A DNA stretch of 64,000 nucleotides from Eledone cirrhosa (Eukaryota): the NCBI GenBank assembly GCA_964016885.1, contig OZ024764.1, positions 9,548,001 to 9,612,000 of the forward strand, in the 5' to 3' direction. The notes under the pieces are model-generated. The model did no database searches and was not told the origin of the DNA. It saw nothing but the letters and a program-made list of their open reading frames with translations. The number at the start of each line of letters is the position of its first letter. Positions within the stretch are counted from its first letter, which is position 1. Of this stretch, positions 27,204 through 60,473 are shown in pieces. The position numbers and the translations under genes are program-made.

Positions 27204-27264
27204 TTTTATCTGATGAAAGCACACCATAATTTAACTTGGTGTCCTTGAAATATGTATAATGAAA
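27204..27264 (+). ncRNA. Type I hammerhead ribozyme motif (family H1)
   Basis: ttttat CTGATGA aagcacacca-taatttaact-tggtgtcctt GAAA tatgta TA atgaaa. Confidence 0.8.
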
Positions 27265-27332
27265 TAAATATGGTTTTATAAATATAGTTTCCATTTGTTA
27301 ATATATCGTATATATATATATATATATATATA

Positions 27333-27454
27333 TATAAAATTAGTCCCTCATCAGTGATTTTGCCAACCATCATTGGTATTTCATCACATTGATTTTTAAT
27401 GCGATGAAATACCAATGATGGTTGGCAAAATCACTGATGAGGGACTAATTTTAT
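27333..27454. repeat. ~120-bp near-perfect palindrome (fold-back terminus)
   Basis: tataaaattagtccctcatcagtg...cactgatgagggactaattttata. Confidence 0.85.
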
Positions 27455-27510
27455 AATATGTAATCCATGTGCAACCATGCAGTATTCTTCTTCCCCTTGT
27501 TTTTCATATA

Positions 27511-27845
27511 TGGCTTAGTGGTTAGAGCATTGGCCTTGCTATCGAAAGGTTGTGAGTTCAATTCTCAGACCGGGTGATGTGTTGTTTCCTTGAGCAAGAC
27601 ACTTTATTTCACATTGCTCCAGTTTACTAAGCTGTAGAAATGAGATGATAGGGACTGGGGTCCATATCATTCCACTGCAAAGTGGTCGTGCAGGTGACAC
27701 GGCAAAAAAGCACCCAGCACTCACTGTAAATGAGGTTGGTGTTAGGAAGGGCATCCAGCTGTAGAAATCAAGCCAGAATCAGTTCCCGTCCCACCCTTGC
27801 AAGCAGGGAAAAGTGGACGTAAAATGAAATGATGATGATGAAAAT
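27511..27845 (+). mobile_element. SINE family B
   Basis: Matches the family B consensus. Confidence 0.9.
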
Positions 27846-27855
27846 GATATATATA

Positions 27856-28105
27856 AATCAGGAAAGAAGAGTGACACGGTTTGCTATACAAAAAAGGTTT
27901 TTAATTCTCACAAGCTCTGATGAATTGATTGGTTATAACTTTGTATTGGTGATCGAGTAACGTGAAAACAGGCGTGTAGCGATCTCTAGACCTACCAGTT
28001 CAGAGAAACAATTGTCAGCAATGAGACTATAAACCTTTTTTGTATAGCAAACCGTGTCACTCTTCTTTCCTGATTTATTATTACTCCAAGTGTTTTCAAC
28101 ATAGG
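27856..28105 (+). mobile_element. PLE-like remnant: inverted termini enclosing a hammerhead-like motif with long stem II
   Basis: 27856-27900 is the reverse complement of 28031-28076. Motif gct CTGATGA ...80 nt... GAAA caattg TC agc at 27914-28019. Confidence 0.6.
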
Positions 28106-28107
28106 AA

Positions 28108-28950
28108 TGGTGGTAATGGTGGTGGTGGTGGTGTGTGGTGGTGGTGGTGGTGGTGGTGGTGGTGGTGGTGGTGGTGGTGATGGTGGTAGTGGTGGTGGTG
28201 ATGTGATGGTGGTGGTGGTGGTGGTGGTGGTGGTGTGGTGGTGGCGGTGGTGGTGGTGATGGTGGTGATGAGATGGTGGTGGTGGTAGTGGTGGTAGTGG
28301 TGGTGATGGTGGTGGTGGTAGTGGTGGTAGTGGTGGTGATGGTGGTGATGTGGTGGTGATGTGATGGTGGTGATGTGGTGGTGGTGATGGTGGTGGTGGT
28401 GGTGGTGATGTGGTGGTGGTGGTGGTGGTGGTGGTGGTGGTGATGTGGTGGTGGGGGTGGTGGTGGTGGTGGTGGTGGTGGTGGTGGTGGTGGTGGTGGT
28501 GGTGATGTGATGGTGGTGGTGGTAGTGGTGGTGATGGTGGTGATGTGGTGGTGATGTGATGGTCGTGGTGTGGTGGTGGTGGTGGTGATGTGATGGTGGT
28601 GGTGGTGGTAGTGATGTGATGGTGGTAGTGGTGGTGGTGGTGGTGGTGGTGATGTGGTGGTGGTGGTGGTGATGGTGGTGGTAGTGGTGGTGGTGGTGGT
28701 GATGTGATGGTGGTGGTGGTAGTGGTGGTGGTGATGTGATGGTGGTGGTGGTGGTGGTGGTGATGTAGTGGTGGTGGTGGTGGTGGTGGTGGTGATGGTG
28801 GTGGTGGTGATGTGGTGGTGGTGGTGGTGGTGGTGGTGGTGGTGGTGGTGATGTGATGGTGGTGGTGGTGATGGTGGTGATGGTGATGGTGGTGGTGGTG
28901 GTGGTGGTGGTGGTGGTGTTGGTGTGGTGGTGGTGGTGGTGGTGGTGGTA
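28108..28950. repeat. (GGT)n/GATGT degenerate array
   Basis: Read directly. Confidence 0.95.
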
Positions 28951-58131: not shown

Positions 58132-58282
58132 TACCTCGAAATCAGTGCAATCAATAACTAAAATAAGTTATTGGGACAGGGCGACTTGGATGGGGAAAGT
58201 AAACAAACAACATAGTAGTAACGCAACGTAAAGAGAGGAAAAGAGAGACAAGTCAATGATACTTGTGGACTTAAGTCCGAAC

Positions 58283-58835
58283 AAATCAATCAACAAGAAG
58301 AGGAAGACACGTCCGAACCCCCGCGAAAAGTGAGAGAGAAAAGGATTTCACACAGGTCAGATGGGAGGAAGTGAGAGAGGGGGAGTAGCGGAGAGTGAGT
58401 GAGTGAAAGCGTGAGGAAGAGGCCAGCCGAGAGAGTGTGTGACCAGCAGAGGGGGTGAAAGAAAGCAAATCAATCAACAAGAAGAGGAAGACACGTCCGA
58501 ACCCCCGCGAAAAGTGAGAGAGAAAAGGATTTCACACAGGTCAGATGGGAGGAAGTGAGAGAGGGGGAGTAGCGGAGAGTGAGTGAGTGAAAGCGTGAGG
58601 AAGAGGCCAGCCGAGAGAGTGTGTGACCAGCAGAGGGGGTGAAAGAAAGCAAATCAATCAACAAGAAGAGGAAGACACGTCCGAACCCCCGCGAAAAGTG
58701 AGAGAGAAAAGGATTTCACACAGGTCAGATGGGAGGAAGTGAGAGAGGGGGAGTAGCGGAGAGTGAGTGAGTGAAAGTGTGAGGAAGAGGCCAGCCGAGA
58801 GAGTGTGTGACCAGCAGAGGGGGTGAAGGAAAGCA
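58283..58835. repeat. 184-bp tandem repeat x3 within a repeat homologous to 22960-23450
   Basis: Units start at 58283, 58467 and 58651 and are nearly identical. Confidence 0.93.
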
Positions 58836-59114
58836 AGAGGTACAAGGAGAGAGAAGGGGGAGAGAGAAAGAGGATAGCAGTAAGACAAACCACGGCTAAC
58901 ACACACACACGTATACATATTTATACTGCCAACACAAACACACACACATAATATAAACACAAATACACATATTTGAGAACACATACATACATACATATAT
59001 ATAACTTGCTTTTAGTGAATTTCTGCAGTGTCAGTGTATGTGTGTATACCCCTTGATGTAACCAACGGGATTTTACATATCTCTCTCTCTCTTTCTATAT
59101 ATATACATACACAC

Positions 59115-59617
59115 ATGTGTTGTTTCCTTGAGCAAGACACTTTATTTCACATTGCTCCAGTTTACTCAGCTGTAGAAATGAGATGATAGAGACCCCAGTC
59201 CCTATCATCTCATTTCTACAGCTGAGTAAACTGGAGCAATGTGAAATAAAGTGTCTTGCTCAAGGAAACAACACATCATCCGGTCTGAGAATTGAACTCA
59301 CAACCTTTCGATTGCAAGGTCAATGCTCTAACCACTAAGCCATGTGTCTTCATATAGATATATATATAAACCTCGTTTTTTATTTTGCTTTGCAAGATTT
59401 CTCATCTGAAAATGAGATGATAGGGACTGGGGTCCCTATCATTCCACTGCAAAGTGGTCGTGTAGGTGCCACGGCAAAAAAGCACCCAGCACTCCCTGTA
59501 AATGAGGTTGGTGTTAGGAAGGGCATCCAGCTGTAGAAATCAAGCCAGAATCAGTTCCCGTCCCACCCTTGCAAGGAGGGAAAAACGGATGTAAAATGAA
59601 ATGATGAATGATGATGA
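59115..59617. mobile_element. Rearranged SINE B: fold-back CORE/head (59115-59349) plus separated 3' half (59408-59617)
   Basis: Palindrome 59115-59277 pivots on the SINE's internal hairpin atgatagggac/gtccctatcat. Confidence 0.85.
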
Positions 59618-59867
59618 CACATATATATATATATATATATATATATATATATATATATTAGGTATATATATATATATATATGAAAACAGGGAGAAATATA
59701 TATATGGAATCATGGATCGACTAAGCATTCTTGCTATATGAACACATTTTGATCTGCTTAACTTCATATCTCTCTCTCCCTCTCCCCTACTTTTCTCTCT
59801 TCCTTTCCTACTCTATCTTCCCCAACAACCCCACTTAAGGGTATTTACATTGTACATTTTACCATTC

Positions 59868-59979
59868 TGCTCTGAGGATACAGTGGTCACAGCATTGGAT
59901 ATTTGAGTTCTGCAAATACTTGTAAATTTGCACATAGCATAACTAGGCTGTAGTACCACCGTGGAAACATTTGTAAGCA
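59868..59979 (+). ncRNA. Type I hammerhead motif with greatly extended stem II
   Basis: tgct CTGAGGA tacagtggt...accaccgtg GAAA catttg TA agca, followed by aataaa. Confidence 0.68.
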
Positions 59980-60084
59980 CACGGAATAAATTACCTTTTT
60001 ATGATGTCTACCTGTTATTATTCATTCTTTATATATATATATATATATATATATATAATGTAGGAGGTGAGTTTTATTGTAGTA

Positions 60085-60473
60085 CAATAAAGCAATGCAG
60101 ATATCGGATAAGAAGCACTCTACAGTTTGTAGGACTGGAGTATACATAATATATAAGATCAAAAGATGGTTAAATGAGTTCCATGTATTTTATTATGCGC
60201 ATTTCAAAAACAAACATCATCATGCAATAATATTTGTGTTTTCATCAGATAAAACAGGAGAACATGATATGAAGGCTAAAAAACACTTGTGGATAGTGCA
60301 GATATGTTGATTTAAAACTACACTATCCACAAGTGTTTTTTAGCCTTCATATCATGTTCTCCTGTTTTATCTGATGAAAACACAAATATTATTGCATGAT
60401 GATGTTTGTTTTTGAAATGCGCATAATAAAATACATGGAACTCCTTTAACCATCTTTTGATCTTATATATTAT
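60085..60473. mobile_element. Palindromic twin-hammerhead element with unpaired tail on the left
   Basis: Arms 60146-60298 and 60321-60473. Hammerheads at 60188-60254 (-) and 60365-60431 (+): ttttat CTGATGA aaacacaaatattat-tgc-atgatgatgtttgtttt(t) GAAA tgcgca TA ataaaa. Confidence 0.85.

Follow-up and report, generated by a model that had tools for sequence, protein, structure and literature searches.

The 64,000-nucleotide stretch of the Eledone cirrhosa genome analysed here (contig OZ024764.1, positions 9,548,001 to 9,612,000, forward strand; hereafter the window, in whose own coordinates positions are given) carries dispersed motifs with the core of type I hammerhead ribozymes, that is CUGANGA, GAAA and the cleavage site NUH in this order, with helix I open and helix II as a closed hairpin. 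Judged by the coding sequences with which they are associated across the genome, these motifs are the hammerheads of the terminal repeats of Hydra-clade Penelope-like retroelements (PLEs). Our subject is the short insert that forms their helix III, which a preliminary description of the window had found to be self-complementary and had read as a sign of dimer-dependent cleavage. The copies of the group termed H1 and the other hammerheads of the window considered here lie as follows.

46455..46520, + strand: H1 hammerhead of the young TATGTA subfamily; C3 at 46463, insert at 46505-46510, predicted cut after 46512
46396..46650, + strand: 5'-truncated Hydra PLE end (terminal repeat and long tail), continuing into a (TA)n tract
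46220..46395, - strand: inverted 5' arm of the 46396..46650 insertion, with a second hammerhead; C3 at 46312, TATGTA at 46270-46265
27202..27266, + strand: H1 hammerhead; insert TATGTA at 27251-27256
48208..48270, + strand: H1 hammerhead; insert TATATA at 48255-48260
54742..54804, - strand: H1 hammerhead with helix II in part decayed; insert TATATA at 54757-54752
6159..6224, - strand: H1 hammerhead; insert TATATA at 6174-6169
60363..60433, + strand: hammerhead of the TGCGCA family, a distant H1 relative (C3 60371); insert at 60418-60423
60186..60256, - strand: inverted twin of the 60371 hammerhead; insert TGCGCA at 60201-60196
18634..18691, + strand: decayed hammerhead (18639) of an older separate family; TGCATA at 18679-18684, where most relatives have TATATA
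27914..28019, + strand: hammerhead (27917) with an 81-nt helix II region and a GUC site; insert CAATTG at 28009-28014
2182..2253, - strand: CATGTG-family hammerhead (2250) with the first helix I pair broken; insert at 2192-2187
59868..59979, + strand: counter-example, a hammerhead (59872) of a young family with CATTTG and a central U.U; insert at 59968-59973

All nine hexamers cited in the preliminary description were located between GAAA and UH. Its statement that they are palindromic or a single G-U pair away from it is borne out for eight inserts and fails for TGCATA (18679), which combines a G-U pair with a C-A mismatch. That copy had also been placed in H1, from which it has to be removed: in its own family 22 of the 29 other loci read TATATA and none TGCATA, and its insert, rejected as a covarying variant, is a private decay of a copy from a TATATA family. 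Stem II had been described as wholly different between copies while still pairing, which is correct between families, whereas the H1 stems are variants related to one another, with compensatory changes between them. When 464 kb surrounding the window were scanned strictly, 48 motifs were recovered, 34 of which have a 6-nt insert; five block shuffles gave 0-2 motifs and none with an insert of this length. No hammerhead family appeared among the 150 of 370 Rfam matches listed for the window, which are only microsatellite-driven miRNA hits, and a whole-window search for inverted repeats was dominated by (TA)n.

In the window copies helix I comprises 3-8 bp or more and the energy of helix II ranges from -2.8 to -22.8 kcal/mol; the first helix I pair, broken in the 2250(-) copy, is intact at 24 of 30 loci of its family. 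A mismatch at helix II pair 4 is retained in otherwise different stems (window copies 46463, 27210, 48216, 54796, 6216, 60371 and 18639; families 0, 3, 4, 10 and 15). It is C.C in 37 of the 41 distinct stems of family 0 in H1, in 10 of 13 stems of family 4 and in 5 of 5 of family 10, and C.U in 7 of 8 stems of the TGCGCA family; the mismatch could be the sign of a tertiary contact to helix I. H1 helix I continues past an internal loop with a further 10-13 bp, in which TTTATAAAAC pairs with GTTTTATAAA (window 46430-46545, 27175-27285 and 48188-48288).

In a 6-nt insert the hairpin of a monomer forms pair 1-6 only, and pairs 2-5 and 3-4 require a second molecule or motif. To examine these inner pairs, we grouped the 388 motifs found in 1.66 Mb into 71 families, leaving the insert out of the clustering, and represented each family by its majority insert; inserts of up to 8 nt passed no pairing filter, and probable false positives were kept. 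Six nucleotides is the commonest insert length (31 of the 71 families). Both inner pairs are retained in 27 of these 31 families, the column-shuffle mean being 9.6, and in 13 of the 17 distinct hexamers, where the shuffle mean is 3.7 and the observed value was reached in none of 200,000 shuffles; off-register control pairs occur in two to five of the 17 hexamers. Pair 3-4 is formed in 14 of the 17 against 7.65 expected. All four Watson-Crick types are represented at each position (2-5 as A-U, C-G, G-C and U-A; 3-4 as A-U, U-A, G-C, C-G and also U-G), and among families with at least two copies Watson-Crick pairs are found at 2-5 in 9 of 10 and at 3-4 in 7 of 10 (P about 0.01 each). Palindromes also occur among the 4-nt inserts (CTAG, GTAC, CGCG). 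Whether the majority insert of a family is palindromic had been set beforehand as the point on which the earlier reading could fail, and it is palindromic in 27 of 31 six-nt families; these 27 have the helix III of 1-2 bp and palindromic loop of the dimer type, to which other families form exceptions.

Of the 17 hexamers, 6 contain a G-U pair and one contains A-C, the latter being a singleton and probably a false positive; tolerance of G-U but not of A-C points to selection acting on the RNA strand. The earlier suggestion that the insert was selected for structure in the source elements is supported by the conservation of dimer-only pairs across families, in all Watson-Crick types and with this asymmetry. 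The asymmetry also largely refutes a by-product of DNA-level or mutational processes, such as a TA microsatellite context, the perfecting of palindromes by template switching or a site for a protein binding double-stranded DNA. TATATA does resemble the (TA)n targets, and the inverted arms of these elements imply that they switch template frequently, but many family inserts are not TA repeats (CGATCG, CCGCGG, CAGCTG, CCATGG, CATATG) and G-U and A-C departures are indistinguishable to double-stranded DNA, so that we regard this explanation as highly improbable.

A genome-wide search with the H1 frame, in which the catalytic core (CUGANGA, GAAA, UH) is the search criterion, gave 65,698 exact matches in 3.0 Gb, spanning many subfamilies, and none with the reversed pattern; these counts reflect a few master elements and are not independent evidence. 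TATRTA accounts for 42,077 matches, about half of them TATGTA (50 of the first 100 listed, counted by hand), and TRCRYA, in a slightly tighter pattern, for 20,677. Among the first 100 listed of the 643 TACRTA matches, a hand count gave 18 TACATA, scattered over many stems with no subfamily of their own, and 82 TACGTA, many of which share one helix II and form a subfamily. TGCGTA, considered as an intermediate to TGCGCA, was absent from the first 100 listed, and TACGCA, which breaks pair 2-5, made up 4 of 100 listed, from three insertions (hand count). A family-specific pairing code is not supported as a rule, since TATATA and CAATTG are each the majority insert of five clusters and TATATA cross-pairs with TATGTA.

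The predicted energetics accord with pairing between motifs. Helix III forced in a monomer with a 6-nt insert costs +1.9 to +4.7 kcal/mol, the self-duplex of paired inserts yields -2.2 to -14.1 kcal/mol, and for the seven paired window copies modelled the active dimer is favoured over two active monomers by 11-20 kcal/mol. A mixed duplex of TATATA with TGCGCA comes to +5.7 kcal/mol, which makes them naturally incompatible palindromes within one genome. From the insert pattern, these energies and published relatives, we consider it probable that the self-complementarity of the 6-nt insert, seen in most families, arises from cleavage of the source elements as double hammerheads. A lone motif would have only A15.1-U16.1 and one further pair under a 4-nt loop and would be unstable, whereas two motifs, in the simplest case the 5' and 3' ends of one transcript, would merge their inserts into a shared helix III of 8 bp. 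The fused double hammerhead would cut after each NUH and release unit-length RNA, RNA with one motif would stay uncut, and selection would have worked on the master elements. Lunse et al. (RNA Biol) reportedly describe, going by their title, dimer cleavage of PLE hammerheads.

The assignment to PLEs builds on the neighbourhood of the hammerheads. A same-strand open reading frame (ORF) for reverse transcriptase (RT) and endonuclease ends 0.4-1.7 kb upstream of them (1.3-1.7 kb in the longer copies of the 46463 family). One locus, L093, has a natural open frame of 706 aa with YRDD and an endonuclease-type motif IIY...YVG. The marks of the Hydra clade (an RWK-like motif, DKT, a CxCX5C linker, and CxxC and CxH by E and N; PMC8557442) are read in its translation as RIRWRA (RWK-like RWRA), DKT at 86, CNCRNKSKC at 565, CDLCVEE (CDLCxEE) and NLRSNLFSCCRH (NxR...CxH), and by eye it has no CCHH motif. 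Searches of Pfam and PDB sequences with this ORF returned nothing significant, so the RT and GIY-YIG assignment draws on the motifs and on a lead from its ESM Atlas neighbours at 0.95-0.99, some clusters of which carry GIY-YIG or RVT_1 on 18-50% of members; comparison with the Hydra clade combined the clade motifs with inspection by eye against Hydra-1_Obim. At the loci listed the copies end in (TA)n, the target of this clade, and traits of endonuclease-bearing (EN+) PLEs are present, namely partial tandems of pseudo-long terminal repeats (pLTRs), inverted 5' copies and an optional tail. Hammerheads lie downstream of Hydra-type ORF ends at 17 loci of the CATTTG family, three of CATGTG, one of a CAATTG family and several of TGCGCA; no ORF was linked to the CAATTG copy in the window (27917). 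The very young CATTTG family (window 59872; loci L183-L212) has a helix II region of 85 nt and lies some 0.5 kb past the end of a Hydra-type ORF. Non-LTR retrozymes, which are non-coding tandem repeats of 170-400 bp, were rejected as the source of H1, whose copies are dispersed ends of a coding element. At one locus each, a GAAC (L110:8997) and a GTAC hammerhead (L226:2632) stand 250-390 nt downstream of RT/endonuclease-like ORFs of non-Hydra type, and other PLE clades probably contribute hammerheads too.

A partner in cis is available in full-length elements. Of 30 near-full-length copies 16 reach upstream beyond the 5' cut site, located 188 nt ahead of the start codon; in 13 of these 16 the 3' site is present as well, giving two same-sense hammerheads 3.7-4.1 kb apart, with an identical hexamer at both ends in 12 of the 13. 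A transcript of such a copy would carry both motifs. The 3' ends of inserted copies cluster about 50 and 140 nt past the cut site, with the 3' hammerhead intact in all of them, and this distribution, together with junctions away from the cut site, implies that the RNA being copied had either not been cut or been rejoined. Between the two repeats of one insertion 35 of 2,629 sites (1.3%) are different, compared with 6.3% between insertions, and in 10 of 13 cases the divergence of the two repeats does not exceed that to the nearest other copy; near-identical ends fit the copying of both from one RNA segment, via a circle or a template jump.

These features would also suit a palindrome selected for RNA-RNA pairing that unites ends or RNAs for reverse transcription, by template jump or in a ribonucleoprotein dimer, with cutting rare or secondary; in PMC11167929 unprocessed RNA was the main insertion substrate. 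However, pairing alone would not require the core, which is intact in the 65,698 H1-frame copies, albeit as the criterion of that search, and the centre of the palindrome coincides exactly with the register of helix III required for a double hammerhead; for these reasons we find this alternative quite unlikely. It is conceivable, as a tentative extension, that the palindrome acts as a switch signalling that both ends are present: ends 4 kb apart would be cut together, the resulting circle with its single hammerhead would be uncuttable, and RT would run more than once round it. Such a switch with a circle would account for why the 3' motif is intact, why no junctions fall on the cut site and why the two ends of an insertion are nearly identical, and circles as PLE templates were proposed as a model in 2014 (PMC4209133).

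Several observations weigh against dimer-dependent cleavage. As the families are related, the shuffle P values are optimistic; the GAAC/GGAC, CCTTTGG and CCTCTGG families have imperfect palindromes, and over all distinct inserts of 2-8 nt, false positives included, 16 of 65 dimer-only pairs are broken. Within the window some motifs that the preliminary description passed over are at odds with the claim, namely CATTTG at 59872, GGAC at 9147(-), the 5-nt inserts CATTG and CACTG and inserts of 14 nt. A tree of 72 H1 variants, constructed with the insert left out, requires two changes for TATATA and places TGCGCA and its decayed variants on one long branch, which makes the two-sided change in H1 a single event; support for covariation is drawn from the comparison between families, with few independent changes inside H1. 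With A/U-only inserts the modelled dimer lies just 1-4 kcal/mol under two freely folded monomers, so that a partner held in cis would matter, and for 27917 and 18639 it lies above two monomers in their best free folds. The 5' junctions of 30 copies show no concentration at the cut site, not one of them lying within 3 nt of it, and the genome thus holds no direct trace of cleavage. The inverted pairs of the window offer no second same-sense motif on one transcript. Of nine Xenopus retrozyme dimers one cleaved, and a Poseidon hammerhead depended on its own protein for cleavage and was not required for in vitro insertion (PMC11167929).

To these points is added the CATTTG family, abundant and young (identity over 151 nt in 36 of 40 matches), which has spread widely with its central U.U. 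Together with protein-assisted cleavage in Poseidon, an H1 helix I that reaches well past 8 bp and the C.C at helix II pair 4 as a possible tertiary contact, this family favours cleavage as a monomer, with a weak helix III held by an element protein and long helices I and II, and with the palindrome helpful or inherited but unneeded. Yet a monomer cannot form pair 2-5 or, above all, pair 3-4, which is nevertheless in excess as given above, and dimerization is favourable by about 8 kcal/mol even for CATTTG; monomer cleavage accordingly appears rather unlikely to us.

A palindromic helix III with dimer cleavage is a known property of PLE hammerheads, with Hydra examples published, and what is new here is the families. 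In PMC4209133 type I hammerheads whose helix III has 1-2 bp and a palindromic loop are described in PLE pLTRs, palindromic 15.2-16.2 and loop 3 being recurrent; dimers showed low activity there and the monomer tested showed none. The review PMC6765202 restates the same picture. The Eledone motifs resemble these metazoan hammerheads in type, pLTR location, the palindromic 15.2-16.2 pair and loop 3, a long helix II, activity predicted for dimers, the presence of many families in one genome and opposite-strand pairs 100-700 bp apart. They differ in the insert, which here is most often of 6 nt where in those hammerheads it is absent, and in H1, where helix II starts with A/U or U.U rather than G10.1-C11.1, no extra base follows CUGANGA, the site is AUA and C.C is retained at helix II pair 4. 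Published Hydra hammerheads have helix III loops of just 1-3 nt, that is near-palindromic inserts (PMC8557442, File S2). With the Hydra clade, including Hydra-1_Obim (PMC8557442), the Eledone elements share RWRA, DKT, CxCX5C, CxxC and CxH around E/N and (TA)n targets, whereas the families differ from Hydra-1_Obim (insert CCAATGG), the unit measures about 4.0 kb, of which 1.3-1.7 kb are a 3' untranslated part, against a published 'generally <3 kb', direct 5' pLTRs are common and copy numbers reach tens of thousands. We found no octopus- or Hydra-specific report of insert covariation in a search that reached few subscription papers and, among supplements, that of PMC8557442.

The newt and axolotl retrozymes and ASBVd (PMC7229834, PMC6466107) likewise have a one-pair helix III with a palindromic tetraloop (cf. 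HHR_Amex1), and for axolotl motifs with this helix III cleavage is better in dimers than in monomers (PMC7229834). Unlike these 330-350 bp tandem repeats, the Eledone motifs are ends of protein-coding PLEs with the partner about 4 kb away. Two same-sense CAATTG hammerheads 726 bp apart (L092:3022 and L092:3748) may constitute a short tandem or a unit resembling a retrozyme. In 58 spread 10-kb stretches at round coordinates a general scan detected 60 motifs, against 2-11 in shuffles of 1,044 kb, which suggests a rough genome total of 2-4 x 10^5, at or above the 126,247 published for axolotl; this total is good only to a factor of about two because the H1 check gave 6 matches where 12.7 were expected.

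The window copies themselves are likely inactive leftovers where they lie. They are 5'-truncated, tblastn of the window found no Hydra ORF remnant, and two copies (46463 and 60371) adjoin their own inverted twins; copies without an ORF and in inverted pairs are probably inert, and a transcript across such a pair would likely fold as a long hairpin. The 46463 copy is 100% identical across 141 nt to 36 of the 54 genome matches listed, many of which form inverted pairs about 200 bp apart. Other parts of the window hold related structures. Two head-to-head hammerhead pairs, 7205(-)/7214(+) and 63582(-)/63591(+), share a common palindromic centre; their 14-nt helix III insert has CTAG as its core, and U.U stands at the base of their 12-nt helix II. 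A repeated motif, CTGAGGA-AGGGCTTATGCCC-GAAA-CGTCG, at 48861 and 63905, with no clear helix I in the scan, may be a rearranged hammerhead. The long near-perfect hairpins at 14355-14495 and 27334-27454, with Rfam miRNA matches under the gathering scores, are probably inverted PLE ends. Young tandem arrays occupy 47132-48130 (112 bp unit), 50885-52621 (65 bp), 56665-57963 (46 bp), 31775-32354 (72 bp) and 58282-58836 (184 bp).

In sum, it is well supported at the level of sequence that the feature is real, that the original case for selection on structure is sound apart from small errors, and that it conforms to the dimer-type hammerhead already known from PLEs, here in Hydra families that are new; a published structural idea is thereby confirmed and quantified, with no new ground opened. 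The genome provides a natural experiment with dozens of families, among them a very young coding family with both ends intact. Its variants differing stepwise by one pair (U-A, U-G, C-G) ease tests of the dimer and circle models, the incompatible palindromes TATATA and TGCGCA offer a ready test of the switch that depends on both ends, and the CATTTG family is the best natural test of the dimer rule.

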